This document shows, in pieces, positions 2,102 through 57,630 of a stretch of DNA of 64,000 nucleotides. The notes under the pieces are model-generated. The model worked only from the letters and a program-made list of their open reading frames with translations, searched no databases and was not told where the DNA came from. A program made the translations under genes and the position numbers. Positions within the stretch are counted from its first letter, which is position 1; every line of letters begins with the position of its first letter. Where the stretch lies: NCBI RefSeq assembly GCF_028368995.1, contig NZ_JAQNDL010000001.1, positions 3,168,001 through 3,232,000 of the forward strand, in the 5' to 3' direction. This DNA is from Nannocystis bainbridge. Its GTDB lineage: Bacteria; Myxococcota_A; Polyangia; Nannocystales; Nannocystaceae.

Positions 2102-2162
2102 GCCATGTCCGATCGGACATGGCACAAGAGACATGGCGCCGAGGACATGCCCTCGGCGCCAT
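2102..2162. repeat. 14-bp-phased array (4 units) of the TGTCC-N4-GGACA family between convergent genes
   Basis: Units: TGTCC-GATC-GGACA 2106, TGGCA-CAAG-AGACA 2120, TGGCG-CCGA-GGACA 2134, TGCCC-TCGG-CGCCA 2148. CAT falls at 2104/2118/2132/2146/2160. Also a perfect 22-bp palindrome at 2102-2123 and a 12-bp inverted repeat at 2133-2162. Confidence 0.85.
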
Positions 2163-6000: not shown

Positions 6001-7311
6001 TCAGAGCGGCGGCAACCCGACCAGCGCCGCGTGGGTGTCGGCCCACATCTTCAGGCCCACGAGGTCGAGGGAGTAAACGCTCGTCACGCTCCACGGCCAC
6101 GCGCCCGCGTAGCCGTTGGCGCGCAGGACATCGAGCCGCGCGGCCGCCTGGTCCGAGACGATGAACTCGCCCACCACCATCGGCCGGTCGAGCCCGAGGT
6201 CGGCGTATGCCTGCACCGTCGGCGAGAACTGCACCGTCCCGAGCTCCGGATCGCCGTTCCACTGCTGCCCGTCCATCCACGGGTAGTAGTGCGTCTGGTA
6301 GAAGTCGAGCCCCAGCGGCGGCAGCCCGTGCGAGCTGGCGAACTCGGGCGTCCACACGCGATACCACTTCAACGACGCCGACCCCAGCGTCACGTAGGCT
6401 GAAGTGTGGGTGTGCACGGCTTCGCTGACGGTGGCCGCGAACGCGTAGAAGTCTGCCAGCGGGACGGCGTCGGCGCCGCCGTCGGGCGAGGCGGCGGGCA
6501 GGTCGGCGATCGACCACTCTGGCTCGTTCATGATCTCCCACGCGAGGATCGCCGGCTCGTCGGCGAACTCCTGCAAGAGCGGCACGATCGCCGCCTCGAC
6601 CAGCGCCGCCCGCTTGGCCGGATCTTCGAGCGTGTCGCTGCGCCCGCCCGTCTGCACCCCGTTGTTGTGCTGGGCCCAGAACATCCAGTGGAAATCGAGC
6701 AGCACCGGCACGAGGTAGATGCCCCGCGCCCGTGCGATCGCCACGGCCTCATGCATGTCCTCGAGGACATGTTCTCCGAGACCGGTCGGATTGCCGTCGC
6801 CCGAGAACGAGATCCCCGCGCGACCGTCGGTGAACACGAACCATCGCGCCACCCGCAGCCCATGACTCTGCAGCGCGTCGAAGTGCGCCCCGACCTCGGC
6901 CTGCTTGGTGTGCACCCCGTAGGTGCCCCAATTGTTGCTGCCGAAATCGCCGCCGTAGTTCAGCCACGGATAGTTGGCGCCCAGCAGGAAGTAATCACCG
7001 TCACCGACCGGGATCGTGCTCCCGGGTGGCACGTCCTGCCCGCCGGTCGTCCCGCTGCTCGAGCTCGTCGAGGTGTCACTGGTCGTGCTCGTCGTGCTCG
7101 TCGTGCTGGTGCTCGTGCTCGAGCTCGTCTCCACGCCGGTCGTCGGCGCCGTCGTACCCCACGTCGTCGTCGTGTCCCACGTCGTGCCCCACGTCGTCGT
7201 CGTCGTCATCGACGAGGTCGTGTCGAAGTCGGCGGCGAACGTGGTCTCGAACCCGTCGTCCAGCTGACACGCGAGCGCGAGCGACCCGAGGACCAGAACC
7301 AGTCGATGCAT
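6001..7311 (-). CDS. Glycoside hydrolase clan A (GH5-like cellulase/mannanase) lipoprotein with Thr/Ser-rich linker
   Basis: Signal MHRLVLVLGSLALAC, WEIMNEPE acid/base motif, QTHYY, VVGEF nucleophile, GAWPWS. Start reset to ATG 7311. Confidence 0.85.
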   Translation of the reverse strand: MHRLVLVLGSLALACQLDDGFETTFAADFDTTSSMTTTTTWGTTWDTTTTWGTTAPTTGVETSSSTSTSTTSTTSTTSDTSTSSSSGTTGGQDVPPGSTIPVGDGDYFLLGANYPWLNYGGDFGSNNWGTYGVHTKQAEVGAHFDALQSHGLRVARWFVFTDGRAGISFSGDGNPTGLGEHVLEDMHEAVAIARARGIYLVPVLLDFHWMFWAQHNNGVQTGGRSDTLEDPAKRAALVEAAIVPLLQEFADEPAILAWEIMNEPEWSIADLPAASPDGGADAVPLADFYAFAATVSEAVHTHTSAYVTLGSASLKWYRVWTPEFASSHGLPPLGLDFYQTHYYPWMDGQQWNGDPELGTVQFSPTVQAYADLGLDRPMVVGEFIVSDQAAARLDVLRANGYAGAWPWSVTSVYSLDLVGLKMWADTHAALVGLPPL

Positions 7312-10048: not shown

Positions 10049-10555
10049 TCAGGCCTCGAACTCGTACTCGGTGAAGCCGAGCTCGAAGCTGCACGCGCGC
10101 GCCGGTGCGACCGCCGTCGGCGGGCTCGCGGCGTGCTGCACCACATAAGGACCGGCCAGGCGCACCACCGCTTCGGGCGTGTGGGCGAGACCTGTCCCGA
10201 AGGTCAGACGCCTGCCGCCGCCGGGCGCGTCCGCTTGCGCGAGCAGCTGCAGCGCGGTCGCCTCCTCCGGGCCCTGCGCATACACGTCGCAGCTCGCCGC
10301 GTCGGCGGCCGTCTGTTCGACCTCGACCTCGACGCGCATCGACCAGCCGCGCCGCGTCGCCCGCCGCTGCAGATCAGCGAGCAGGTCGGCTGCCGCAAAC
10401 TCGTGCACGTCGTCGTCATCGAGCGCATCGGGCTGCGCGACCGGCAGCGCCACGCTGTAGACCGGGCAGAACAGCGCGCCCCCTAGCGGATCGCCGACGC
10501 CGAACACGCAGCGCAGCGCGAACAGCCCGGGGGCCGTGCATGGCTCTTCGGACAT
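10049..10555 (-). CDS. Hypothetical protein
   Basis: Open frame between rpsU and the EEP gene in the same orientation, with a plausible non-shadow composition. The start ATG lies inside the palindrome junction at 10553-10555. Confidence 0.55.
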   Translation of the reverse strand: MSEEPCTAPGLFALRCVFGVGDPLGGALFCPVYSVALPVAQPDALDDDDVHEFAAADLLADLQRRATRRGWSMRVEVEVEQTAADAASCDVYAQGPEEATALQLLAQADAPGGGRRLTFGTGLAHTPEAVVRLAGPYVVQHAASPPTAVAPARACSFELGFTEYEFEA

Positions 10556-10626
10556 GTCCCTCGGGACACCGTCATCGCGCCGGGCGGCGACCAGACGCAG
10601 TCGCATGGGACCTGTCCGAAAGGACT
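10541..10626. repeat. Cluster of TGTCC-N4-GGACA units
   Basis: TGGCT-CTTC-GGACA 10541, perfect TGTCC-CTCG-GGACA 10555, TGTCC-GAAA-GGACT 10613. Confidence 0.8.
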
Positions 10627-14484: not shown

Positions 14485-14574
14485 GGACATGTCCGCCGCG
14501 ACATGCTCGATGGAGCATGTCCGCCGCGACATGCCCGCCGAAGCATGTTCTGTAGGACATCTCGCAGGACATGC
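14485..14574. repeat. 14-bp-phased tandem array (5-6 units) of the TGTCC-N4-GGACA family between convergent genes
   Basis: CAT at 14488/14502/14516/14530/14544/14558. Units include TGTCC-GCCG-CGACA twice and TGTTC-TGTA-GGACA. Degenerate copies continue to about 14695. Confidence 0.85.
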
Positions 14575-14703: not shown

Positions 14704-15789
14704 TCAGGTCACCGTGCGCAGCAGGCTGCTGCGCTTGGGCCCGGTCGCGCTGAGCTTGCTGAGGGCCAGCGCCGCGCGGGCGGCCACGTCGGTCAGGGCC
14801 TTGGCCTGCTCGCTCGCGGGCGCGCCCTCGACCACCGGCACCCCGGACTCGCCGCCGTAGGAGATCTTGTTGTCGATCGGGACCTGGCCGAGCAGGTCGA
14901 CGCCGAGCTCGCGGGCCAGCGCCACGCCGCCGCCGCTGGCGAAGATCGCGTCGTGGTGGCCGCACGACGGACACACGTAGTAGCTCATGTTCTCGACCAC
15001 GCCGACGACCGGCACCTCGAGTTTATTGAACATGTTGACCGCGCGGCGGACGTCGATGAGCGCGACCTCCTGCGGCGTGGTGACCATGATCGAGCCAGTG
15101 ATCGGGATCAGCTGGGCGAGCGAGAGCTGGGCGTCACCTGTCCCCGGGGGAAGGTCGACGATCAGGTAGTCGATCTCGCCCCACTCGACGTCCTCGAGGA
15201 ACTGCTTGAGCAGCTTGTGGATCATCGGCCCGCGCCAGACCACGGCGTTGCCGGGCTCGACGAAGAAGGCGACGCTCATCACGGGGATCCCGCGGTAGAG
15301 CGCGGGGCTGATGCGGTCGCCGGACAGGGTCGTCGAGGTCTCGCGCTCCGGCGTCCCGAGCATCTTCGGCACGCTCGGCCCGTAGATGTCGGCATCGAGC
15401 AGCGCCACCTTGGCGCCGAGGCGGTGCAGCGCCATCGCCGTGTTGACGCTGACGGTGCTCTTGCCGACGCCGCCCTTGCCGGCCGCGACCGCGAGGACGT
15501 TCTTGACCGTGGGCAGGCGGTTCAGGTCCTGGCGCGCCGGCTTCTGCGGCACCTTGAGGCCCCACTCGATCGTGCCGCGGAGGTTGCGAGCGGCCAGCGC
15601 CGCGACCACCGACGCCTCGAGGGCCTCGCGCAGCGGGAAGCCCGGCGAGATCAGATCGATCTTGAACGTCGCCTCGCCCGCCGCATCGATGCGGACGTCC
15701 GAGACCTGGTCGGCGACGATCTCGCGGCCCGTCGCCGGGTCCTTGACGCCCGACAGCGCGGCCAGCACTTGCTCCACGGTGACGCTCAT
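14704..15789 (-). CDS. apbC: Mrp/NBP35 (ApbC) Fe-S cluster carrier ATPase
   Basis: AAGKGGVGKST, DADIYGPS, VWRGPM, DLPPGTGD, VTTPQEVA, ENMS..VCPSCG. Confidence 0.95.
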   Translation of the reverse strand: MSVTVEQVLAALSGVKDPATGREIVADQVSDVRIDAAGEATFKIDLISPGFPLREALEASVVAALAARNLRGTIEWGLKVPQKPARQDLNRLPTVKNVLAVAAGKGGVGKSTVSVNTAMALHRLGAKVALLDADIYGPSVPKMLGTPERETSTTLSGDRISPALYRGIPVMSVAFFVEPGNAVVWRGPMIHKLLKQFLEDVEWGEIDYLIVDLPPGTGDAQLSLAQLIPITGSIMVTTPQEVALIDVRRAVNMFNKLEVPVVGVVENMSYYVCPSCGHHDAIFASGGGVALARELGVDLLGQVPIDNKISYGGESGVPVVEGAPASEQAKALTDVAARAALALSKLSATGPKRSSLLRTVT

Positions 15790-27287: not shown

Positions 27288-29594
27288 ATGACCTCGACTG
27301 TTAAACGGCGATCTGCGCCGACGTTCATGGCCCTGGGCATCGCCGGCCTCGCTGCCGCGGCCCTCGGCGCTTGCAAGGACGGCGGCTTCGGCGGCGACGA
27401 CGACAGCTGCGTCTCGACCCGCGAGTTCTTCGCCAACGAGGCCTGGCCCAAGGTGCTCGGCAAGACCTGCATCTCGTGCCACGGCCCGGCCGGCATCGCC
27501 GAGGAGCAGGGCGCCGAGTTCCGCCTGCTGCCCGCCTCCTACCCCGGCTTCCTCGACGCCAACCTCGCGGCCGTCACCGAGAACGCCTCGGTCAGCTACG
27601 ACGACCTCTCGGCGCTGCTGGCCAAGCCGACCGCCAAGACCAAGCACGGCGGCGGCGAGGTCATCAAGCCCGACAGCGAGGAGTACCGGATCCTCGAGAG
27701 CCTGCTCGCCCAGCTCAAGGCCCCGCGCGAGTGCCCCGGCAACGACGGCGCCGACCTCGACGCCGTCGAACTGATGAGCCCCGAGCAGACCCTGCGCAAG
27801 GCCACGCTGCACCTCGCGGGCCGCCTGCCGACCGCCGAGGAGCTCAAGGAGGCCGCCGCCGGCGACGACGCGCTGGCCGAGGCCGTGCGCGGCGTGCTCG
27901 AGGAGGACGGCTTCTACGACCGCCTCGGCGACATCTTCAACGACCTGCTGCTGACCGACCGCTACCTCGTCTACACCGGCTTCGCGGTCAACATCCTCAA
28001 CAGCGAGGACTTCCCGAACGCCGGCGCGTGGTGGGAGGGCCTCGAGGGCCAGGACGCGCTGCGCTACCAGGTCAACCGCGCCGCCGCGCGCGAGCCGATC
28101 GACCTGATCAACTACGTCGTCCGCAACGACCGCCCCTTCACCGAGATCCTCACCGCCGACTACACGGTGCTCAACCCGTTCTCGGCCCAGCTCTACGACC
28201 TCGACCTCGGCTTCGCCGACCCGGCCGACCCGCGCGAGTTCAAGGAGGCCAAGCTGTTCAGCGTGCGCGGCGGCAAGAAGACCCTGCCGCACGCCGGCGT
28301 GCTCAGCTCGCCGATGTTCCTCAACCGCTTCCCGACCACGCCGACCAACCGCAACCGCCACCGCGCGCGGATGACCTACAAGCTGTTCCTCGCCACCGAC
28401 GTGCTGCGCATCGGCGAGCGGCCGATCGACCCGTCGCTGTCGGAGGCGTACTCGAACCCGACGCGCGATGACAAGCAGTGCAACTTCTGCCACCAGCTGC
28501 TCGACCCGGTGGCCGGCGCGTTCCAGAACTACGACGACTACGACATGGAGGTCCTGACCACCCGCGAGTGGTTCCCGGAGATGTTCGCGCCCGGCTTCGA
28601 CGGCGAGGACATCCCGAAGTCGGAGTTCTCCAAGTCGCTCGAGTGGTTGGCCGCGCGCCTCGTCAAGGATCCGCGGTTCGTCATCGCCACCGTGCACACC
28701 GTGTTCCGCGCGCTGACCGGGACCGAGCCGCTGCTGTTCCCGGCCGACGCCGAGGACCCGCTGTACAGCGCCAAGCTCGACGCCTGGGAGGCCCAGGACG
28801 CCCTGTTCCGCCAGATCGGCGACGAGTTCGTGGCCGACGAATACAACCTCAAGACCGTGATCGTCGGCGTGGTCATGAGCCCGTACTTCCGCGGCCTCAG
28901 CCTCGACGCGACCGAGCTTTCCGCGGCCGACAGCGAGGAGCTCGCGGTCGTCGGCCACGGCCGGCTGTCGACCCCCGAGCTGCTGGCGAACAAGCTCCAG
29001 GCGACCACCGGCATCCGGTGGATCCGCGGCTGGGACCTCAATGACTGGCTGACCACCGACTACCGGATCCTCTACGGCGGCATCGACTCCGACAGCATCA
29101 CCCAGCGACTCACGCGCATGAACGGCATCATGGGCGCGGTCGCCGGGCGCATGGCCAACGAGGTCGCCTGCGCCGTCACGGCCTACGACTTCTCGCGCGC
29201 GACCGACAAGCGGCGGCTGTTCCCGAAGGTCACGCTCGACACCGTGCCGCTGAGCGAGACCGGCGCCGAGGTGCCCGACAACGTCGCCGCCATCAAGGCC
29301 AACCTCGTCCACCTCCATCAGCGCGTGCTCGGCGAGACGCTCGCGGCCGACGACCCGGAGATCCAGCGCGCCTACGACCTGTTCCTCGGGACATGGAAGG
29401 ACGGCACCGCGGCCGTCGCCGGCGGGACCGAGAACGAGTGGCTGAGCTGGTGGTGCCAGGCCCGCGTCGACCCCAACACCAACGTCGACCTGCCCGACGC
29501 CGAGAAGATCGAGACCGACAAGAACTACACCATCCGCGCGTGGATGGCGGTGATGACGTACATGCTGTCGGACTACCAGTTCCTCTACGAGTGA
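27288..29594 (+). CDS. Putative diheme c lipoprotein, DUF1585/1588/1592-like partner of DUF1501
   Basis: Lipobox LGAC, CISCH and CNFCH heme motifs, HGGG, LAGRLPT, EILTADY, HAGVLS, RHRAR. Start at ATG 27288. Confidence 0.78.
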   Translation: MTSTVKRRSAPTFMALGIAGLAAAALGACKDGGFGGDDDSCVSTREFFANEAWPKVLGKTCISCHGPAGIAEEQGAEFRLLPASYPGFLDANLAAVTENASVSYDDLSALLAKPTAKTKHGGGEVIKPDSEEYRILESLLAQLKAPRECPGNDGADLDAVELMSPEQTLRKATLHLAGRLPTAEELKEAAAGDDALAEAVRGVLEEDGFYDRLGDIFNDLLLTDRYLVYTGFAVNILNSEDFPNAGAWWEGLEGQDALRYQVNRAAAREPIDLINYVVRNDRPFTEILTADYTVLNPFSAQLYDLDLGFADPADPREFKEAKLFSVRGGKKTLPHAGVLSSPMFLNRFPTTPTNRNRHRARMTYKLFLATDVLRIGERPIDPSLSEAYSNPTRDDKQCNFCHQLLDPVAGAFQNYDDYDMEVLTTREWFPEMFAPGFDGEDIPKSEFSKSLEWLAARLVKDPRFVIATVHTVFRALTGTEPLLFPADAEDPLYSAKLDAWEAQDALFRQIGDEFVADEYNLKTVIVGVVMSPYFRGLSLDATELSAADSEELAVVGHGRLSTPELLANKLQATTGIRWIRGWDLNDWLTTDYRILYGGIDSDSITQRLTRMNGIMGAVAGRMANEVACAVTAYDFSRATDKRRLFPKVTLDTVPLSETGAEVPDNVAAIKANLVHLHQRVLGETLAADDPEIQRAYDLFLGTWKDGTAAVAGGTENEWLSWWCQARVDPNTNVDLPDAEKIETDKNYTIRAWMAVMTYMLSDYQFLYE

Positions 29595-31008: not shown

Positions 31009-31297
31009 GGACATGTCCCGAAGTTCGCGTGAGGCGACGCGCACGATCACGGCGTCGTGCATGGCCCGATCGACCGCGAGCTGCGACAATCACATGTCCC
31101 GAAGGACATGTGCACTGGCGCGCGCAGCCGAGCCCGCTGGCAGCCGTGACCGCGCTCGACATGTCCCCGGGGACATGTGCACTGGCGCGCGCGACCCGGC
31201 TCGCCGCGCTCGCCGTCGGCGCCGCGCGGCCGACTCGGGGCGCCTGCCACGCCATAACTTTCGGACATGTCCTGAAGAACATGTGCGTCGGCGCGCC
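31009..31297. repeat. Direct repeats (about 34 bp) built around TGTCC-N4-GGACA
   Basis: ACATGTCCCnnnGGACATGTGCACTGGCGCGCGC at 31092-31125 and 31159-31192, a diverged copy at 31265-31297, and a half copy at 31009. Confidence 0.85.
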
Positions 31298-32535: not shown

Positions 32536-32645
32536 AGCCTGTCCTTCGGGACAGGCTTTTCTCGCGTCGAGCTTCTTGGAAGCCTGTCCTTCGGGACATG
32601 CTGCTTCTTGCGTGGCCCGAAATGATGGCCATGTCCCTTCGGACA
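32536..32645. repeat. Three perfect TGTCC-N4-GGACA sites spaced 45 and 47 bp
   Basis: AGCCTGTCCTTCGGGACA is identical at 32536 and 32581. TGTCC-CTTC-GGACA at 32632. Confidence 0.88.
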
Positions 32646-34958: not shown

Positions 34959-35898
34959 GCGCCCGGGCGCTGGCCTCGACCACCAGCGCCCCGAGCTCTT
35001 GCTGGGCCCGCTCCGCGGCGGACGCCTCGGGGCACTGGGCCAGGCGCTGCAGCACCTGGTAGGCCCCGGCGTAGCGGCGGGCCGGGTCGCGATCGAGGTT
35101 CTTGCGCACGATCTCGGCCAGCTTGGCCGACAGCCCGGGCAGGCGGCGGCTCGGGTGACCGGCGTCGAACTTGACGATCGCGTCCATCGTCTTGAGGTCG
35201 TCGTCGGCCTTGAAGCAGCGCTGGCCCTTCAGCATCTCCCACAGCATCACGGCCAGGCCGAAGATGTCCGAAGAGACAGTCGCGGCCGCCGTCCCGACCA
35301 CCCGCTCCGGGGCCATGTACGCCTTCGAGCCGGCCTGCGACATGTCGCTCTCGCGGGCCAGCCAGATGCTGGTCGCCGAGTTGTAATCGGCCAGCATGAC
35401 CTGGCCGGTGCGCGACAGCAGCACGTTGGCCGGGCAGATGTCGCGGTGGACCACGCCCAGCTCGACCAGCTTGCCCTTGTCCTCGGCCTCGGCGGTGTGC
35501 ACGTGGTGCAGCGCGTCGGCCAGCTGGCCCATGATGTAGACCGCGATCTCTTTGCTGACGCCGCGCGGATGGCCGACGTCGTGGCCGAGCAGCACGCTCA
35601 GGTCGCAGCCGTCGATCGCGTCGAGGACGAGATAGCGCACGCCGTTCTGCGCGCCCTCGCCGTGCGCGCTCGGGATGCCCGGGTGATTGAACGACTGATA
35701 GAGCCGGATCTCGTGCTCGAATTGAGCGGCCAATATCGCGTGCTCCGGGCCCGAGCCGGACGGCAGCAGCTTGACGACGTAGGACGGCGGCGCTGTCTGC
35801 GGGTCGTCCTCGTGGCGCGCGAGGAACAGGTGGAACACCGAGCTGCGCACCGCGAGCGGCCGGACCAGACGGAACTTGCCGAGACTCTGGAGCTCCAT
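34951..35898 (-). CDS. Atypical Ser/Thr protein kinase
   Basis: VVKLL, HRDICPAN, LADYN in place of DFG, YMAPE, SDIFGL, DPARRY. No Gly-rich loop. Confidence 0.85.
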   Translation of the reverse strand: MELQSLGKFRLVRPLAVRSSVFHLFLARHEDDPQTAPPSYVVKLLPSGSGPEHAILAAQFEHEIRLYQSFNHPGIPSAHGEGAQNGVRYLVLDAIDGCDLSVLLGHDVGHPRGVSKEIAVYIMGQLADALHHVHTAEAEDKGKLVELGVVHRDICPANVLLSRTGQVMLADYNSATSIWLARESDMSQAGSKAYMAPERVVGTAAATVSSDIFGLAVMLWEMLKGQRCFKADDDLKTMDAIVKFDAGHPSRRLPGLSAKLAEIVRKNLDRDPARRYAGAYQVLQRLAQCPEASAAERAQQELGALVVEASARAQA

Positions 35899-38052: not shown

Positions 38053-38945
38053 TGACGACCGAGCTGCGCGGTACGATCCTCAGCGTCGACCTCGACGACC
38101 TCGCCTGCTACCACGCGATCCACGGCCTGCCGCCGCCGACGCCCGAGCAGGCCGACGTGGTGCTCGGGCGCTGCCTGCCGCGCTTCCTCCGGCTGTTCGG
38201 CGAGACCGGCGCGCGCGCCACCTTCTTCGTGGTCGGCCGCGACCTCGAGCGCGACATGCAGGGCCCCGGCCACGGCGCCGCGCTGCTCGGCCTCGCCGCG
38301 CAGTCGGGGCACGAGCTCGGCAACCACAGCTACAGCCACGCCTACGACCTCGTCGACTGGCCTTCGGGACAGGTCTATCAGGACCTGCGGCGCTGCGACG
38401 ACCTGCTGCGCAAGCTCGGCGCCGAGCCGCGGGGCTTCCGTGCGCCGGGCTACAGCCACGACGAGCTGCTCCTGCAGCAGGCCGGCGCGCTCGGCTACCG
38501 CTACGACAGCTCGCTGCTGCCGTCGCTGCCGTACTACGCGGCCAAGCTGGCGGCCATGGCGTGGATCCGTGTGCGCGGGCGGCGGTCGCAGTCGCGGGCC
38601 CGCGGGCTGCGGAGCTTCGTCGGCCCGGCGCATCCCTACTACCGGGCGGACGTCGGGATGTGGGAGGTGCCGATCAGCGTCAGCCCGCTGCTGCGCCTGC
38701 CGATGGTCGGGACCTTCGTGCTGCGCGGCGGGCCGCTCTACCGCGAGGCGCTGCGGATCCCCGCGCTGCACCTCGAGCTGCACGCGCTCGATCTCGCCGA
38801 CCCCGACAACGACCCGATCGATCCCGCGCTGCGCAAGCGGCAGCCCGAGCTGCGGACCCCGCTCGAACAGCGGCTCGCGCGGCTGCGCGAGCTGATCAAA
38901 CAGCGGGGAGGGGCGACTTCGATCGCCGCCGCGTTCGGGTCCTAG
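38049..38945 (+). CDS. Polysaccharide deacetylase family protein
   Basis: SVDLDD, ATFFVVG, HELGNHSYSH, GFRAPGY, YDSS. Confidence 0.88.
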   Translation: MMTTELRGTILSVDLDDLACYHAIHGLPPPTPEQADVVLGRCLPRFLRLFGETGARATFFVVGRDLERDMQGPGHGAALLGLAAQSGHELGNHSYSHAYDLVDWPSGQVYQDLRRCDDLLRKLGAEPRGFRAPGYSHDELLLQQAGALGYRYDSSLLPSLPYYAAKLAAMAWIRVRGRRSQSRARGLRSFVGPAHPYYRADVGMWEVPISVSPLLRLPMVGTFVLRGGPLYREALRIPALHLELHALDLADPDNDPIDPALRKRQPELRTPLEQRLARLRELIKQRGGATSIAAAFGS

Positions 38946-41425: not shown

Positions 41426-41527
41426 TGTCCTTCAGGACAGCCCTCGGGAGGGCCGCGGCACACGCCGCGGCCCTTCGCGCTTTCGGGATCCCAACCCGCC
41501 GGAGGTCACCGCATGTCCCTCGGGACA
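41426..41527. repeat. Two perfect TGTCC-N4-GGACA sites flanking a GC hairpin
   Basis: TGTCC-TTCA-GGACA 41426, hairpin 41449-41474, TGTCC-CTCG-GGACA 41514. Confidence 0.85.
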
Positions 41528-46273: not shown

Positions 46274-49297
<3,024 letters not shown>

Positions 49298-51195: not shown

Positions 51196-51293
51196 TGTCC
51201 TTCGGGACATGCTTCGAGAGAACCGGCCGACGTCGCTCGGCGATGGATGTCTCTCGACACATCTCCTTCCTGCCGAACCTGTCCCTCAGGACA
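51196..51293. repeat. TGTCC-N4-GGACA cluster between convergent genes
   Basis: Perfect sites at 51196 and 51280, near-match TGTCT-CTCG-ACACA at 51248. Confidence 0.85.
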
Positions 51294-51301
51294 TCCTCTC
51301 T

Positions 51302-52255
51302 TCAAGCGTCCTGCGGATCGCCCTCGCGGGCCCGTCCGCGGCGCGTCCTCGCGGCCGGGAGCGCGGCCAGGCGCGGGATCCCGGCGGCCGCAGCGGCGAA
51401 GAACTCCGGATCGAGCTCGACCCCGACGCTCTCGTAGCCGACCGCGACCGCGGCCGCGATCGTCGAGCCGCCGCCCATGAACGGGTCGAGCACCACGCCG
51501 CGGCCGAGCGGCAAGGCAGCACGCACCAGCTGCCGCATCAGCGCCTGCGGCTTGAGCGAGGGGTGAGGCGAGAGCGCGCGCTCCTCGGGCCGGGTCGGCG
51601 CGGAGGCGATGACGTCGGCGAACGGCTGGTCAGCGGAGATCCGCCGCAACCCACCGGTGCCCCACCGGCGCAGGTTGTCCTGGACGCGGCCCTCGCACGG
51701 CTTGCGAAACAGCCCCCACGGCTCCCACGCGGACCGCGGCATGACTGTGACGTCGGCGAACTCCTCGTGGGCGTTCTTCGGCCGGTCGCCGCCGCGCAAG
51801 GTCTGGACCAGGCGGATGATCTCGGCCCGCTTCTCGAACCCGGCCGCGAGGAACGGCCCGTACACGAGGTGCGAGAGCAGCGGGTTGCCGGCGATGAACA
51901 CGTGCGCGCCAGGGACCAGCACGCGCATGGCCCGGGCGGCGAAGTCGGCGAAGAACCGGGCCATGGCGTCACGCTCGTCGGCCGACAGGACGGTGAAGCG
52001 CGGCAGCGGGCTGCGGGTGCTGCCGTCCATGGTCGGGGGGATCCGCCACACCCCGCCGTGACCGCTGCGCAGCTTGGCAGTCTCGAGCGCGGTGTATTCC
52101 TTGAGGCCGTAGGGCGGGTCGGTGACGATCGCGTGGATCGATCTCTCGGGCTGCGCGGCCATCCAGCGCAGGCCGTCCGCCCGCACCAGCGTGTACGCGG
52201 CCTCGCCGAGCCGGTGCGAGCTCGAGACGAAGCTTTCCTGGTCGGTCGCGACCAC
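51302..52255 (-). CDS. Orphan DNA methyltransferase (N6-A/N4-C, beta class)
   Basis: IVTDPPY precedes HPSLKP and VLDPFMGGGST, then GVELD. Confidence 0.9.
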   Translation of the reverse strand: MVATDQESFVSSSHRLGEAAYTLVRADGLRWMAAQPERSIHAIVTDPPYGLKEYTALETAKLRSGHGGVWRIPPTMDGSTRSPLPRFTVLSADERDAMARFFADFAARAMRVLVPGAHVFIAGNPLLSHLVYGPFLAAGFEKRAEIIRLVQTLRGGDRPKNAHEEFADVTVMPRSAWEPWGLFRKPCEGRVQDNLRRWGTGGLRRISADQPFADVIASAPTRPEERALSPHPSLKPQALMRQLVRAALPLGRGVVLDPFMGGGSTIAAAVAVGYESVGVELDPEFFAAAAAGIPRLAALPAARTRRGRAREGDPQDA

Positions 52256-52483: not shown

Positions 52484-53395
52484 TCAGACCAACTCGGCGC
52501 GCAGGAACTCGCCGATCTTGCGGATCGCCCGCCGGGCCTCGGGGAGCAGACTCGGGAACGCCTGAAACACGTGGATCATGCCGTCCCAGATCTCGAGCTC
52601 GACCCGACCCTGCGCCGCCCGCACGCGCTCGGCCAGGCGGATCGAGTCGTCGTGCAGGACCTCGCGCGTGCCGACCTGGATCAGGATCGGCGGCAGGCCG
52701 CGCAGGTCGGCGTGGATCGGCGAGATCAGCGGGTGCCGCGGGTCGCCGTCGGGGCCGACGTAGTAGCGGCCGAACGCGGCCATGTCGCCGCCGAGCATCG
52801 GGTCGAGAGCGGCGCGCGTGCGCACCGACTCGCCCGTGGCCGCGAGGTCGGTCCACGGCGACAGCATGAACGCGGCGGCCGGCAGCGGCAGCGTCCCGGC
52901 GTCGCGCAGGCGCACCAGCGTGGCCGCGGTCAGCCCCCCACCCGCCGAGTCGCCGCCGATGGCGATCGAGCCGGGCGAATAGCCCTGGTCCAGGAGCCAT
53001 GTGTATCCGGACATGGCGTCGTCGAGCGCGGCCGGGTACGGGTACTCGGGGGCGAGCCGGTAGTCGAGGGCGAGCACGCGGACACGGGCCTCGCGGCTCA
53101 GAGCGGCCGTCAGCATCCGGTGCGAGGCGGGCGAGCCGGCGACGTAACCACCGCCGTGGAGGTAGAGCAGGACCTTGTCGGCGCGGGCCCCGACGGCGTG
53201 GATCCACTCGCCCGGGACGCCGCCGACCTCGGCCGGCTCGACGTACACGCCAGGCGGCAAGCGGCCCTGCCGGACCCCGCGCTCGATGGTCTTGCGCACG
53301 CCCTTGTAGCTGTCCGGCGTGAACTCGCCGATCGGGTGGCGGCGGCGCCAGTAGCGGATCATCTGGTACAGGAGGTGGCTCTGCAGGCTTGCCAT
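52484..53395 (-). CDS. Alpha/beta hydrolase, HSL-family esterase
   Basis: HGGGY, DYRLAPE, GDSAGG, SPWTDL, HVFQ. Confidence 0.93.
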   Translation of the reverse strand: MASLQSHLLYQMIRYWRRRHPIGEFTPDSYKGVRKTIERGVRQGRLPPGVYVEPAEVGGVPGEWIHAVGARADKVLLYLHGGGYVAGSPASHRMLTAALSREARVRVLALDYRLAPEYPYPAALDDAMSGYTWLLDQGYSPGSIAIGGDSAGGGLTAATLVRLRDAGTLPLPAAAFMLSPWTDLAATGESVRTRAALDPMLGGDMAAFGRYYVGPDGDPRHPLISPIHADLRGLPPILIQVGTREVLHDDSIRLAERVRAAQGRVELEIWDGMIHVFQAFPSLLPEARRAIRKIGEFLRAELV

Positions 53396-53424: not shown

Positions 53425-54529
53425 GAGAATGAACGAGCGCGCCGGTGTCGATCGGGGCGACGGTGTAGCGCGGCCCGATGCCCCAGGCCAGCGGAGAGCG
53501 GACGAAGGGCGAGGAGCAGTAGATGTTGGGGACCTCGCCGCCGGCGTCGCCGCGATCGACGATCGCCTTCTCGAGCACCATGGAGGTGTACTGCGACATG
53601 CTGCTCTCGAGCGCGTTACCGTTGAGGACGACCTCGGCGCCGTACTTGACGGCGTGCTCGCGCAGGCTGCGGAGGCCGGAGGCGCGCGGCAAATAGCTCT
53701 CGGGGCAGAGGCCGTTCTCGGAGATGGCGAACACGCCGCGGCCGGCGGCGTGGAAGACGATCGAGTGGTTGCCGAGCGTGTGCCCCGGGGTCCACACCAG
53801 CGCGAGCCCCTTGCCGAGCCACACCGAGCCCTCGACGACGACGATCCGCTCGGCCGGCACGCCGTCGAGCGCCTCTTCGATCCACCACGGCCGCTGCAGC
53901 GGGTGCAGCGCCTGCAGGGTCTCGAGCTCGCGGCGATTGACGATCAGCCGCGCGTTCGGATAGAGCGGCGGCCGCCCGTCTTCGCCGACGAGGCCGCGCC
54001 GCAGGTCCTGGACGTGCAGGTGGTCGAAGGTGACGTAGTCGATCTTGGCCGGGTCGACGCCGAGCCGCTTGCGCGCCAGCGCTGCCGGGCCGTCGGCCCT
54101 TCGCAGCAGCTCGGGCGACAGCACCGGCAGCAGGTCGCGGCGCAGCTGGTCGAAGAAACCTGCCCTCGCGGACAGGTCGGCCTCGCTCGGGTTGACGAAG
54201 ATCGTGCGCGCCTGCCCGCTCCAGTCCTCGAACTCGATCAGGTTGCAGCGGTTGCGCATCAGCAGGTACTTCGCCCGGGTCGGCGGCGCCTGCCAGAAGC
54301 CGAACGCGACCGGGTACGGGAACGGCAGCAGGTCGATCGTTCGGAAGCCGCGGACGGGGCCGTCGCCGCGGAACTGGCGGGCGAAGGCCTCGCCGCGGGC
54401 GCGCATGTCCTCGAGGCGAAACCCGGGCCGCTGCTCGCGCCAGCCGTCGTCGAGCTCGGGGATGGCGCGAAAGTTGGCGGGCAGCTCCGCCGCGCGCGGC
54501 GCCGGGACGGTGGAGCTCTCGAACGGCAT
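53417..54529 (-). CDS. Metallo-beta-lactamase-fold hydrolase
   Basis: IDYVTFDHLHVQD, YPNARLIV, TPGHTLGNHS. Confidence 0.75.
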   Translation of the reverse strand: MPFESSTVPAPRAAELPANFRAIPELDDGWREQRPGFRLEDMRARGEAFARQFRGDGPVRGFRTIDLLPFPYPVAFGFWQAPPTRAKYLLMRNRCNLIEFEDWSGQARTIFVNPSEADLSARAGFFDQLRRDLLPVLSPELLRRADGPAALARKRLGVDPAKIDYVTFDHLHVQDLRRGLVGEDGRPPLYPNARLIVNRRELETLQALHPLQRPWWIEEALDGVPAERIVVVEGSVWLGKGLALVWTPGHTLGNHSIVFHAAGRGVFAISENGLCPESYLPRASGLRSLREHAVKYGAEVVLNGNALESSMSQYTSMVLEKAIVDRGDAGGEVPNIYCSSPFVRSPLAWGIGPRYTVAPIDTGALVHSLA

Positions 54530-55460: not shown

Positions 55461-55612
55461 ATCACCTGTCCCCCGGGACATCCGCCTCGCCGACGCCCGG
55501 GCGCGCGCCCGCGAACCTCGATTCGAAATCACCTGTCCCCCAGGACAGCCTCGCCCCGCCGGCGCCCTCCGCGGACCCACCAAAATCACCTGTCCTCGGG
55601 GACAGCCTCGCC
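55461..55612. repeat. Three about 30-bp direct repeats, each with a perfect TGTCC-N4-GGACA core
   Basis: (AA)ATCACCTGTCCnnnnGGACA(GCCTCGCC) at 55461, 55526 and 55583. Cores at 55467, 55534 and 55591. Confidence 0.88.
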
Positions 55613-55627: not shown

Positions 55628-56278
55628 TCAAGAGCGGGCCTTCGGCAGCTGCTTGCGCAGGAACTCGACCGCGACCTGGCAGAACGGGCGGAACTCCTGC
55701 CCGTCGCGGCTCGACCAGCGATCGATCTCCCGCTCGAGCGCCGCGCGCGACCACGTCTTGGTGTCGCTGTATTTCTTGCGCAGGCGGGCCACCAGGCCCT
55801 CGATCACCCGGCGCCGCAATTGCCGGAGGTGCGGCGCGTTGAGGCCGAGCACCTGGTCGAGGTCGCGCTCGGCCTCGGCGTCGGCGCCGAACACCCGGCC
55901 CTCGACGAAGCCGTAGCGCACGCGGTGCTCGACCCCCGCGATCGGGTCGAGCACCAGCGGGCTCGCGCCCTTGCGCACGTCGCAGTGGCGGATGTCGCGC
56001 TGCTCGTGCGTCGGGTTGTCCTGTCCTCCGGGACAGGCGGCCAGCAGGTTGCGGTGCGTCAGCTGCTGCCCGCGGTGCTCGTGCTGCGGCCGCAGGTGCT
56101 CGATGCGCAGCGACTCGACCGCGATGCGGTTCATGCAGTAGCAGCAGATCGCGCCCTGCTCGCGCACCAGCGCCCGCCGCAGCTCCTGCTTCCACGGGCC
56201 CGGATCTTCGAAGCTGCCGCCGGCCTGGCGGTGCTCCGTCAGCGCCGCCGGCTCGCGGCCCTTGCGGATGTTCTTCAT
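55628..56278 (-). CDS. ptuB: HNH endonuclease, PtuB/TIGR02646-like
   Basis: MKNIRKGREP, LVREQGAICCYC, IEHLRPQ, NLLAAC, HCDVRKG, VLGLN. ATGA-coupled to the ATPase. Confidence 0.85.
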   Translation of the reverse strand: MKNIRKGREPAALTEHRQAGGSFEDPGPWKQELRRALVREQGAICCYCMNRIAVESLRIEHLRPQHEHRGQQLTHRNLLAACPGGQDNPTHEQRDIRHCDVRKGASPLVLDPIAGVEHRVRYGFVEGRVFGADAEAERDLDQVLGLNAPHLRQLRRRVIEGLVARLRKKYSDTKTWSRAALEREIDRWSSRDGQEFRPFCQVAVEFLRKQLPKARS

Positions 56279-57630
56279 CCCGCCGCCTCGTCGTCGTCCT
56301 CGGCCAGGAACTCCATCATGCTGCCGAGGCGGACCACCTCGGCGTCGTGCGGGCCGAAGTCCGCGACGAGCTCGGCCAGCGCCGCCCGGGCCGCGGGCCA
56401 GCGCTCCTCGTCGATCAGGCGGGCCACCGCGCGGACCTTCGCGGCCGAGAAGGGCGGGTACTGATCGACGCCCATCACATCGTAGAGGATCGCGTTGCTG
56501 TCGCGCCCGAGGGTGTGCGGCGGCTCGTCGACCAATTGAAAGTCGCGCAGCAGCTTGACCTGCTCGCGCGGCACCAGCGACAGCACCTGCGGCGAGTGGG
56601 TGGTGACGATGAACTGCAGGTTGGGGAAGGTGCGCTCGAGGTCGGGGATCAGCGTGCGCTGCCACTGCGGGTGCAGGTGCAGCTCGACCTCGTCGACGAG
56701 CACGATCCCGCGGCCCTGCAGCGGGTCGGCGAGGTTCGGGTGGGTGATCGCCAGCCGGCGGGCGATGTCGCCGACCAGCACGAGCAGGCCCTGCTCGCCG
56801 CCCGACAGCTGCGAGAAGGCCAGCTGGGTGCCGCGCTTGCGCAAGATCAGCGCGGGCCGGCGACCGACCACGAAATCGATGTGGGCCGCGCCGGGCTCGC
56901 GCGTGGGCCGGCGACGGAACCGCAGGTCGGTCCAGTCGGGCAGGAACGAGAGGATCGCCCGCCGCACCGCGGCCAGCTGCGGGTCGACGTGGTCGCGGTG
57001 CTCGCGGATGAGCTCGTTCTCGAGGTCCTCGCGCAGCAAGAACCACCGCAAGAAGTCTTCGCGCCGGGCCCCGCGCGACCAGCCGTGATCGGCGTACAGC
57101 CCCGCGGGCCCCGAGGGCAGCTCGCCGCGGGCGTCGTCCACCTCGGCCTCGACGTAGCGCTCGTGCGAGTAGGTGGCGAGCATCGGCGCGTCGAGCACGA
57201 CCCCGCGGGCCAGCGCGTCGGCCCAGCGCGCGGCCCAGCTGGCGGTCTGCGGCGTGTCGGGCTGGGCGTGGTGCCAGCGGTCCCACCGGTGCGCGAGCTC
57301 GTGGCGCAGCACGAACGACGCCTCGCCCGGCTCCGGGTCGGCGAACAGCTCGTCTTTCGTGGTGATCGCCGGCGGCGTCCACACGAACTCGCCGTGGACC
57401 ACGCAGCGCTCGGCCCCGGCGCGCACGTCGGCCAGGCTGAGCCGCGACGCGTCCTCGCCGAGCCCGGTGCGGGCCACCGCGAGCGCCAGCAAGTAAGCCA
57501 CGGCGTCGAGCACCGAGGTCTTGCCGCTCCCGTTGACCCCCACCAGCGCCGTCGTGCGCCCGCGCGAGAGGTCGAGCTCCAGCGACGCGAAGCCGCGGAA
57601 GCTCTCGAGCTGCAGCCGATGAATCCGCAT
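56275..57630 (-). CDS. ptuA: ABC/AAA ATPase, PtuA-like
   Basis: LQLESFRGF, GVNGSGKTSVLDA, QLSGGE, GDIARRL, VDEVELHLHPQWQ, FIVTTHSPQV, GRDSNAIL..VMG. Confidence 0.88.
   Translation of the reverse strand: MRIHRLQLESFRGFASLELDLSRGRTTALVGVNGSGKTSVLDAVAYLLALAVARTGLGEDASRLSLADVRAGAERCVVHGEFVWTPPAITTKDELFADPEPGEASFVLRHELAHRWDRWHHAQPDTPQTASWAARWADALARGVVLDAPMLATYSHERYVEAEVDDARGELPSGPAGLYADHGWSRGARREDFLRWFLLREDLENELIREHRDHVDPQLAAVRRAILSFLPDWTDLRFRRRPTREPGAAHIDFVVGRRPALILRKRGTQLAFSQLSGGEQGLLVLVGDIARRLAITHPNLADPLQGRGIVLVDEVELHLHPQWQRTLIPDLERTFPNLQFIVTTHSPQVLSLVPREQVKLLRDFQLVDEPPHTLGRDSNAILYDVMGVDQYPPFSAAKVRAVARLIDEERWPAARAALAELVADFGPHDAEVVRLGSMMEFLAEDDDEAAG

Follow-up and report, generated by a model that had tools for sequence, protein, structure and literature searches.

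Gene-embedded, hyper-abundant palindromes are known chiefly from cyanobacteria, where the function of the HIP1 element has been unresolved for decades. HIP1 is said, after work by Robinson et al. in 1997, to spread by nucleotide substitution. The present analysis concerns an element of similar kind in a myxobacterium, the interrupted palindrome TGTCC-N4-GGACA, as found in a 64,000-nucleotide stretch of Nannocystis bainbridge (assembly GCF_028368995.1, contig NZ_JAQNDL010000001.1, positions 3,168,001 to 3,232,000; this whole stretch is called the window), in the rest of that genome and in related genomes. The cyanobacterial HIP1 word (GCGATCGC) is a short palindrome, 15- to 300-fold over-abundant in and between open reading frames (ORFs), and its conservation between genomes exceeds expectation, which has been read as selection and not as replenishment (PMC5861425). 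The same source records no peptide, RNA or gene-regulation role for HIP1 and describes its function as still open (PMC5861425). HIP1 contains the sites of two orphan methyltransferases, and in a preprint it is reported to improve transformation in a cyanobacterium.

The Nannocystis word resembles HIP1 in being a hyper-abundant palindrome that is located in and between ORFs, is conserved between genomes and has spread in genes by substitution. Unlike HIP1, it belongs to a myxobacterial genus, in a different phylum, and in contrast to the contiguous 8-mer of HIP1 it is interrupted (5+4+5) and reaches up to 20 bp. Its density is about 10-fold lower than that of HIP1 (about 1 per 5.5 kb), it strongly prefers gene 3′ ends and convergent spacers, and its sequence is different, with no methyltransferase link found (no C5 enzyme in the genome, and one N6/N4 enzyme, that of the window, whose presence does not follow the word). 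On balance, we incline to the view that the palindrome is a HIP1-like genomic word of the whole genus, which a putative dimeric protein reads as symmetric duplex DNA.

Other repeated words share some of these features. The DNA uptake sequences (DUS) of Neisseria and the uptake signal sequences (USS) of Pasteurellaceae are lineage-specific words that lie in tolerated frames and regions, form inverted pairs downstream of genes and have stable orthologous positions. The word described here is likewise lineage-specific, placed in tolerated frames and downstream of genes, and stable at orthologous positions, whereas DUS and USS are asymmetric 9-12-mers and it is a strict palindrome without even spacing. 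Rickettsia palindromic elements (RPE) are palindromic repeats of about 100–150 bp within protein-coding genes, inserted relative to orthologues; the sites here also lie inside protein-coding genes but are 14–20 bp long and free of indels. The stoperators of Cluster A mycobacteriophages are an operator-type protein-binding word copied into coding regions, with tens of asymmetric, oriented sites per phage genome. Coding-region copies are found here too, but as about 2,000 symmetric sites over an 11-Mb chromosome and in the whole genus. For repetitive extragenic palindromic (REP) sequences, a role in termination, mRNA stability or supercoiling is among the proposals in the excerpted source (PMC3733652). 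Like REP and the bacterial interspersed mosaic elements (BIME), the present word forms groups of short palindromes in spacers at gene ends. Membership of the REP/BIME system with its REP-associated tyrosine transposase (RAYT) was rejected: the word is not restricted to extragenic DNA, as 38% of the perfect copies lie in genes, it has no GTAG/CGTC head or tag, nothing is conserved beyond ±3 nt, and no Y1/RAYT gene matching PF01797 was found in the 90.5%-complete genome.

The motif was deduced from sites listed in a preliminary description of the window, which had drawn attention to a palindrome written by rare codons into a conserved motif of the apbC gene and to similar cases in other genes. 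A logo of the genome sites widened the consensus by 3 bases per side to RCM-TGTCC-YNNR-GGACA-KGY, with Y preferred at the first and R at the last base of the spacer, and no conservation was seen in it farther out. The window carries 16 perfect copies, while 0.02 are expected from dinucleotide shuffles, and 88 copies with up to 2 mismatches, against 25.5 ± 4.2 expected. The whole genome (11.05 Mb) contains 1,987 perfect copies with the 4-nt spacer; other spacer lengths within 0–12 nt give 0–16 copies, and the 29 other arm permutations give at most 83 copies each. Relative to composition, the word is over-represented by one to two orders of magnitude. Likeness to a distant site over long flanks (≥35 bp) was found for just 101 of the 1,987 sites, and therefore the motif is not part of a longer mobile element. 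No published description of the word was found in the full-text literature, a body from which most subscription journals and supplements were beyond the reach of the search.

Sites commonly abut. The junction GGACATGTCC occurs 956 times genome-wide, mostly between two sites, and the favoured inter-site distances are 14, 28, 42 and 56 nt; examples in the window are the triplet 21268/21282/21296 and the pair 47596/47610. The spacing within clusters is not regular (coefficient of variation of the gaps 1.14, versus 0.94 for a shifted exponential). The densest array of the genome has 12 sites with no more than 1 mismatch (9 perfect) in 600 bp, at G000:C2:1217434-1218000. It is a 36-bp tandem repeat that was not called by the gene caller and may be a repeat-protein gene.

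Genes were called by our own codon-likelihood caller (7,997 genes, 83% coding), which is crude and under-calls, so the in-gene counts are probably lower bounds. The perfect sites are located as follows:

In genes: 759 perfect sites, 82.7 per Mb
Noncoding: 1,213 perfect sites, 647.7 per Mb
At gene edges: 15 perfect sites

The in-gene sites are evenly distributed along gene length, and their coding context is normal, with GC1/2/3 (G+C content by codon position) of 0.77/0.56/0.93 and the same frame on both sides. The counts were compared with a null in which the synonymous codons of every gene were resampled in 20 replicates, codon context being ignored:

0 mismatches in genes: 759 observed, 10.3 expected
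1 mismatch in genes: 1,738 observed, 389 expected (4.5×)
2 mismatches in genes: 4,063 observed, 4,758 expected
3 mismatches in genes: 27,427 observed, 38,728 expected

Perfect in-gene sites reach 57–74 times the expectation (10–13 expected). Six control palindromes gave observed-to-expected ratios of 0.35–2.3 for perfect, 0.57–1.5 for 1-mismatch and 0.64–1.3 for 2-mismatch copies; therefore, the null is calibrated within about two-fold. As the preliminary description had supposed, the perfect and 1-mismatch sites do not occur at the rate predicted by amino-acid sequence and codon usage.

The imperfect classes carry the same signal where rare codons are involved. The 1-mismatch sites with one matching A/T-ending codon number 1,484 against 152 expected (9.75×), and the 2-mismatch sites with one matching rare A/T-ending codon 2,141 against 1,155 (1.85×). 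Among the 1-mismatch sites, 1,519 of 1,738 (87.4%, versus 34% in the null) cannot be improved synonymously; these protein-locked sites were expected about 127 times (~12× excess), whereas the synonymously fixable ones are at chance (219 versus ~243). In the 2-mismatch class, the sites improvable by one synonymous change are depleted (1,723 versus ~2,850). In-gene copies sit at the best match that their encoded protein permits. In a check that the preliminary description had proposed, enrichment of A/T-ending codons was confined to places where the motif or the bases directly extending it call for them: GC3 drops to 0.00 at the third positions demanded by the motif and is 0.46–0.54 at the adjoining position of the extended motif, and it returns to 0.92–0.94 within about 10 codons. 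Near-motif sequences that match without a rare codon were found at about half of the null (ratios 0.38–0.69); this is probably a codon-context effect, because control palindromes of related composition show a milder deficit (0.57–0.8).

The in-gene copies arose by substitution and not by insertion. Five syntenic congeners, with 85–93% nucleotide identity, were aligned to the window, and none of the seven listed loci has an indel at the site. In a 540-kb collinear block shared with genome G005, the 37 in-gene perfect sites comprise 23 that are perfect there as well, 5 with 1 mismatch, 4 with at least 2, 1 with an indel and 4 unaligned. The site in a GH5 cellulase-family gene has no indel, in a comparison within the genus only. 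The site in a PtuB-like HNH gene (C-P-G-G-Q) lies inside a C-x-G-G block common to homologues of other genera with ~30–40% identity, where no insertion is present, and the apbC motif DxPPGTGD has no length change across 29 genomes. This agrees with the preliminary description, in which the sites had been taken for substitutions. In-frame insertion of the RPE type or of the type of miniature inverted-repeat transposable elements was rejected on the same counts (0 of 7 and 1 of 37), no longer element being conserved around the sites.

Third codon positions were scored against G005 in 356 of 795 genes that could be aligned (mean identity 90.2%), and the conserved positions were:

A/T third positions, background outside sites: 2,370 of 6,117 (38.7%)
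A/T third positions, arms of perfect sites: 36 of 40 (Fisher p 1e-11)
A/T third positions, arms of 1-mismatch sites: 77 of 83
A/T third positions, arms of 2-mismatch sites: 101 of 119
A/T third positions, arms of 3-mismatch sites: 89 of 200
G/C third positions, arms of perfect sites: 82 of 84 (background 87.0%)
Third positions in spacers: 29 of 40

At the DNA level, constraint acts on the arms and leaves the spacer free. A comparison of synonymous change between motif and non-motif positions, proposed in the preliminary description, accordingly places the conservation of the arms far above the background. The same pattern emerges from a six-genome table in which 45 of the 47 window genes could be aligned and 19 loci have no more than 1 mismatch in at least one genome; at 50543, for instance, five different spacers occur.

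The copy singled out in the preliminary description lies in the following gene:

14704-15789, minus strand: apbC, a Mrp/ApbC (NUBPL)-type P-loop ATPase (PF10609, E 9.6e-99)
15139-15152, in apbC: TGTCC CCGG GGGAA, 2 mismatches to the true motif

The letters and codons had been given correctly: on the minus strand, 15136-15155 reads GAC CTT CCC CCG GGG ACA GGT GAC and encodes DLPPGTGD. A palindrome is present, as had been claimed, but it is a 2-mismatch copy, of a class that as a whole is not above chance. All five syntenic congeners, including the outgroup, have CTG CCC CCG GGG ACA (gene strand TGCCCCCGGGGACA) with 1 mismatch, which is the best match that DLPPGTGD allows because a perfect site would need Pro>Ser. 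The CTG>CTT change of the window is derived and synonymous, and it removes one match. The rare codons ACA and GGT, which make up 2.4% of Thr codons and 5.9% of Gly codons in the long ORFs used for training, fit the core or the extended motif as had been described, while CTT, named together with them, works against it. ACA is conserved at the site in the window and all five congeners. In a set of 29 genomes, ACA encodes the Thr of DLPPGTGD in none of the 16 motif-poor genomes but in 8 of the 13 motif-rich ones, namely those of the six close species, of one more congener and of one sister genus, and GGT follows in 7 of the 8 ACA genomes and in 1 of the 21 others; these counts are descriptive because the genomes are kin. 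The apbC copy of the window is a decayed form of an old 1-mismatch site locked by DLPPGTGD.

The word has altered protein sequence as well as codon choice. Peptides compatible with the motif were counted in the proteome and in residue-shuffled proteins for the three frames:

V-[PLHQR]-x-D frame (xxT GTC CNN NNG GAC Axx): 1,157 compatible peptides, 788 in shuffled proteins, 429 perfect sites
[LMV]-S-x-[GRW]-T frame: 591 compatible peptides, 285 in shuffled proteins, 266 perfect sites
C-P-x-G-[HQ] frame: 147 compatible peptides, 13 in shuffled proteins, 64 perfect sites

The proteome excess amounts to ~800 motif-compatible peptides, close to the count of sites themselves, and many sites have therefore come at the expense of amino-acid changes; 37–45% of the compatible peptides are realised as perfect sites. 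Genes with 5–12 sites show repeated PVPEDS, AVPADS or DMSSGTS units in Pro/Ala/Ser/Asp-rich linkers, arrays that may include local duplications. Flanks with at least 70% P/S/T/E/D/A/G surround 20.4% of in-gene sites, compared to 5.7% of random coding positions. In the lineage of the window, matches were gained by nonsynonymous change at 29380 (Glu>Gly) and 47610 (Ala>Thr), and at least three sites lost matches (13020, 15139 and 50543). Synonymous writing into conserved motifs, the original proposal, therefore holds as far as the use of rare codons goes, but many sites need amino-acid changes, often in disordered linkers rich in Pro, Ser and Asp.

Between genes, sites are densest in convergent spacers (1.52 per kb), less dense in tandem ones (0.61) and sparsest in divergent ones (0.23); a site is present in 24.9% of the convergent spacers. 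The distance from a stop codon is no more than 20 nt in 345 of 1,556 cases and peaks sharply at +2 nt (41 sites). Most commonly, a site follows the stop codon after 2 nt, and a few sites hold the stop codon in their spacer (TGTCC-TGAA-GGACA type). There is no peak before gene starts, and the promoter-containing divergent spacers are the poorest. A transcription-factor operator or regulon was rejected on this distribution. Cluster-bearing spacers vary in length between species, and local tandem duplication is visible in them. In intergenic sites aligned to G005, the arms are 0.848, the flanks 0.722 and the spacers 0.523 identical, compared to ~0.82 throughout in controls (about 82–84% for random intergenic positions set against the spacers); the low spacer identity could come from spacer hypermutability, inversion of the palindrome spacer or alignment of non-orthologous neighbouring sites. 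The preliminary reading, maintenance at the DNA level by substitution of a word that is no ordinary REP or operator, is largely supported, the latter part by the poor divergent spacers and by the lack of Y1/RAYT and of long flanks. It needs two corrections. Independence from transcription units, which it had asserted, is wrong for the intergenic copies, as these are tied to gene ends, and the protein sequence is altered too.

The word is characteristic of the genus. Each of the 10 other genus genomes sampled has 114–2,090 copies, versus 1–6 copies of the reversed control pattern in the same genomes. Two other genera of the family have 87 and 161 copies, and the remaining 18 sampled members of the family and class have 0–7. 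Among the matches listed, the named genome records with multiple matches are all Nannocystis except one, a small contig of an uncultured Eisenbergiella metagenome-assembled genome with three sites in tandem.

The concentration at gene ends can be explained in another way, by a REP-like hairpin that acts in RNA or single-stranded DNA as a 3′-end terminator or exonuclease block and whose in-gene copies are tolerated by-products. We regard this as rather unlikely, although the pile-up after stops with its spike at +2 nt, and the quarter of convergent spacers that carry a site, are in its favour. So is the site at 32540, which tops a hairpin of −20.7 kcal/mol (z −4.8) followed by a U tract and is kept in all six genomes with changing loops. 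Intergenic flanks are also slightly more complementary than independence predicts (0.589 versus 0.494 at ±1). As regards intrinsic terminators, which have a stable G+C-rich stem followed by a U tract, 32540 alone of five folded examples has these features, and 207 of 1,213 intergenic sites extend the stem by 3–11 bp. Against the hairpin, the other four examples fold no more stably than shuffled sequences do (z −1.5 to 0). The 1-mismatch in-gene variants are mirror-symmetric on the sense strand (T3>C 120 versus A12>G 86; C5>T 137 versus G10>A 162) with no excess of G.U-compatible changes, and the variant preference is fixed, TG[T/G]C[C/T], with G2/C13 almost invariant. Preferences in the flanks and at the spacer ends are symmetric but lack base-pair covariation, and none is seen at the flanks of in-gene sites. 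The in-gene arms are strongly constrained at synonymous sites, so they are not mere by-products. The Y1/RAYT transposase was likewise not found, PF01797 having no match in this 90.5%-complete genome and matches in 6 of 14 reference genomes, and the logo has no tag of the GTAG/CGTC type. Overall, the pattern looks like one left by a homodimeric protein on duplex half-sites and not by an RNA hairpin selected for its structure.

A directed mutational, repair or gene-conversion drive, comparable to very-short-patch repair or biased conversion, might produce the word without any function. The extreme abundance, the overriding of amino-acid sequence (~800 excess peptides) and the nonsynonymous changes toward the word at 29380 and 47610 would all be accounted for, and a restoring process would yield the observed conservation too. 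Such a drive is nevertheless improbable: near-sites that arise by chance and could be perfected synonymously are not depleted (219 versus ~243), just 37–45% of compatible peptides have been converted, the window lineage has at least three losses versus two gains, and the same imperfect sites remain imperfect in six of six genomes. No C5 cytosine methyltransferase was found in the genome, so there is no Dcm/Vsr-type system. Between selection and a directed restoring process, the data lean to selection. We give equally little weight to a self-recognition signal for DNA uptake or conjugative transfer, similar to DUS/USS and built up by uptake bias and recombination. Its genus specificity, unequal use of the reading frames in genes (429, 266 and 64 sites), enrichment in less constrained linkers, concentration downstream of genes as an inverted pair and conserved orthologous positions would suit such a signal, but known uptake signals are asymmetric, while this word is strictly palindromic with fixed spacing, and its clusters are no more evenly spaced than random. 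Chance, or a by-product of amino-acid sequence and codon usage, is refuted for the motif as a whole and hardly credible in view of the 57–74-fold and 4.5-fold excesses of perfect and 1-mismatch sites. It describes best the 2-mismatch in-gene class, at or below expectation, including the apbC copy of the window, which belongs to the depleted class improvable by one synonymous change. Even there, the 2-mismatch sites with rare codons exceed expectation 1.85-fold and keep those codons in 101 of 119 cases (background 38%), and the apbC site has 1 mismatch in all five congeners, in the class that, with a matching A/T third position, is enriched 9.75-fold.

The favoured reading, a genomic word recognised by a protein, would work as follows. 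The word is over-represented in and between genes, and its in-gene copies are made and kept by point substitutions without indels, at the price of rare A/T-ending codons where the word demands them and of tolerated amino-acid changes. The putative reader would be a symmetric, probably homodimeric, DNA-binding or DNA-modifying protein on double-stranded DNA, contacting two half-sites of 5–8 bp with centres 9 bp apart, and its dimers would often abut at a 14-bp period. Individual sites would be kept by selection on the interaction of reader and word; candidate roles are chromosome organisation, gene-end marking and self-DNA recognition in DNA transfer.

Several points weigh against this reading. 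The strong transcription-related bias of the intergenic copies would suit a role in RNA or as a terminator no less well, and a subset of sites tops strong terminator-like hairpins. Intergenic turnover is fast: of 76 perfect sites, just 11 have a perfect counterpart in G005 and 43 do not align, a figure to be set beside random intergenic 14-mers, which align to G005 in just 124 of 250 cases. The cluster spacing is irregular, so a spacing-dependent chromosome role is without support. Conservation alone has no power to separate selection from a process that restores the word, the genomes compared are kin and not independent of each other, and the in-gene statistics depend on the crude gene calls and on the null without codon context mentioned above. 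No reader was identified in profile searches for the transposase and for methyltransferases, and one candidate for it, an enzyme of the window, was rejected:

51302-52255, minus strand: stand-alone N6/N4 DNA methyltransferase (PF01555, E 6.2e-17), between SDR and esterase genes

Its gene is syntenic in congeners but interrupted in two motif-rich genomes, by an in-frame TGA within it in G003 and by a split into two pieces in G007; it is present in the motif-poor G015 and was not found in the motif-bearing sister genera G011 and G013. Its presence does not track the motif; the comparison covered this one enzyme, in a genome with about 10 other N6-type methyltransferases.

We suggest, tentatively and as a doubtful possibility, that this is a second, independently evolved HIP-like system, in which a putative lineage-specific protein reads a symmetric 14–20-bp word at thousands of positions. 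Selection for the word would then be so strong that codons were rewritten even in universal motifs such as the DLPPGTGD of ApbC and several hundred V-P-x-D-S and M-S-x-G-T peptides were added to the proteome. On this view, the concentration after stop codons would mean that the protein marks or insulates gene ends, and the word would be long and specific enough for a direct pull-down, so that the decades-old HIP-type question could become experimentally tractable. The case is independent of the cyanobacterial one and comes from a phylum far removed from it, and its bipartite word is both longer and more specific. With half-site symmetry and a preference for gene ends, the word leaves a measurable footprint on codon choice and protein sequence, which is a new handle on the function and the readers of such words. 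It is also a warning for annotation, as rare codons and odd linker peptides in Nannocystis can be dictated by constraints at the DNA level.

The other in-gene sites that the preliminary description had listed in the window proved real; they are given here together with one further site (54161):

6756..6769: perfect, in the GH5 cellulase-family gene 6001-7311, minus strand, H-V-L-E-D-M; perfect in four of six genomes, with a varying spacer
29380..29393: 1 mismatch, L-F-L-G-T-W; gained in the window lineage by GAG>GGG (Glu>Gly), with 2 mismatches in four relatives and 4 in one
35265..35278: 1 mismatch, T-V-S-S-D-I-F; favoured variant AGACA, identical in six of six genomes
38358..38371: 1 mismatch, W-P-S-G-Q; favoured variant TGGCC, arms identical in six of six genomes, rare CCT and GGA kept
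47596..47623: two abutting 1-mismatch sites, 28 bp, in the gene 46274-49297, A-V-R-K-H-M-S-G-E-T
53000..53013: 2 mismatches, M-S-G-Y-T-W, in an esterase gene; the Ser-Gly codons give a perfect TGTCC half-site
54161..54174: 1 mismatch in six of six genomes, with a variable spacer
56022..56035: perfect, in the PtuB-like HNH gene 55628-56278, minus strand, C-P-G-G-Q with rare TGT and GGA; identical in six of six genomes

At 47596, the arms are kept in all six genomes while the spacer changes via the Arg codons CGC, CGT and CGA; the match at 47610 was gained by GCA>ACA. At 53000, the window has Ser-Gly versus Ala-Ala in G001 (translated by eye), and the other four relatives differ too.

The intergenic sites and groups of the window are:

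2106..2119: perfect, directly after a stop codon; within ~20 bp absent from four of five congeners
10541..10626: group between a stop and the next start; 10541 (2 mismatches) abuts 10555 (perfect, and so in six of six genomes), followed by 10613 (1 mismatch)
14490..14559: three 1-mismatch sites at intervals of 28 bp, in the convergent spacer adjoining apbC
31095..31175: two perfect sites 67 bp apart with duplicated flanks, in a spacer of 541 bp; four congeners with 552–558 bp there have no perfect site
32540..32645: three perfect sites in a convergent spacer, the first topping the terminator-like hairpin described above and present in six of six genomes with varying spacers and loops
41426..41527: convergent spacer with two perfect sites
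51196..51293: two perfect sites downstream of a pair of convergent genes, in a spacer of 131 bp; the spacer has 39–234 bp in congeners and no perfect site in any of them
55467..55604: local tandem repeat (57–67 bp period) with three perfect sites, downstream of the PtuB gene; the spacer has 280 bp with three sites here and 98 bp without sites in two congeners

Beside the 2106 site, a G+C-rich inverted repeat (GGCGCCGAGG...CCTCGGCGCC) followed by a T-rich run occupies 2134-2175. It resembles an ordinary intrinsic terminator and, unlike the 2106 site, which four of the six genomes lack, is conserved in every one of them. The HNH gene with the perfect site is part of a two-gene Septu-type defence pair at 55628-57630 on the minus strand. 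Without a Pfam match, it matches PtuB (PDLC00322, E 7.7e-57), and the upstream gene matches PtuA (PDLC00271, E 2.2e-105).

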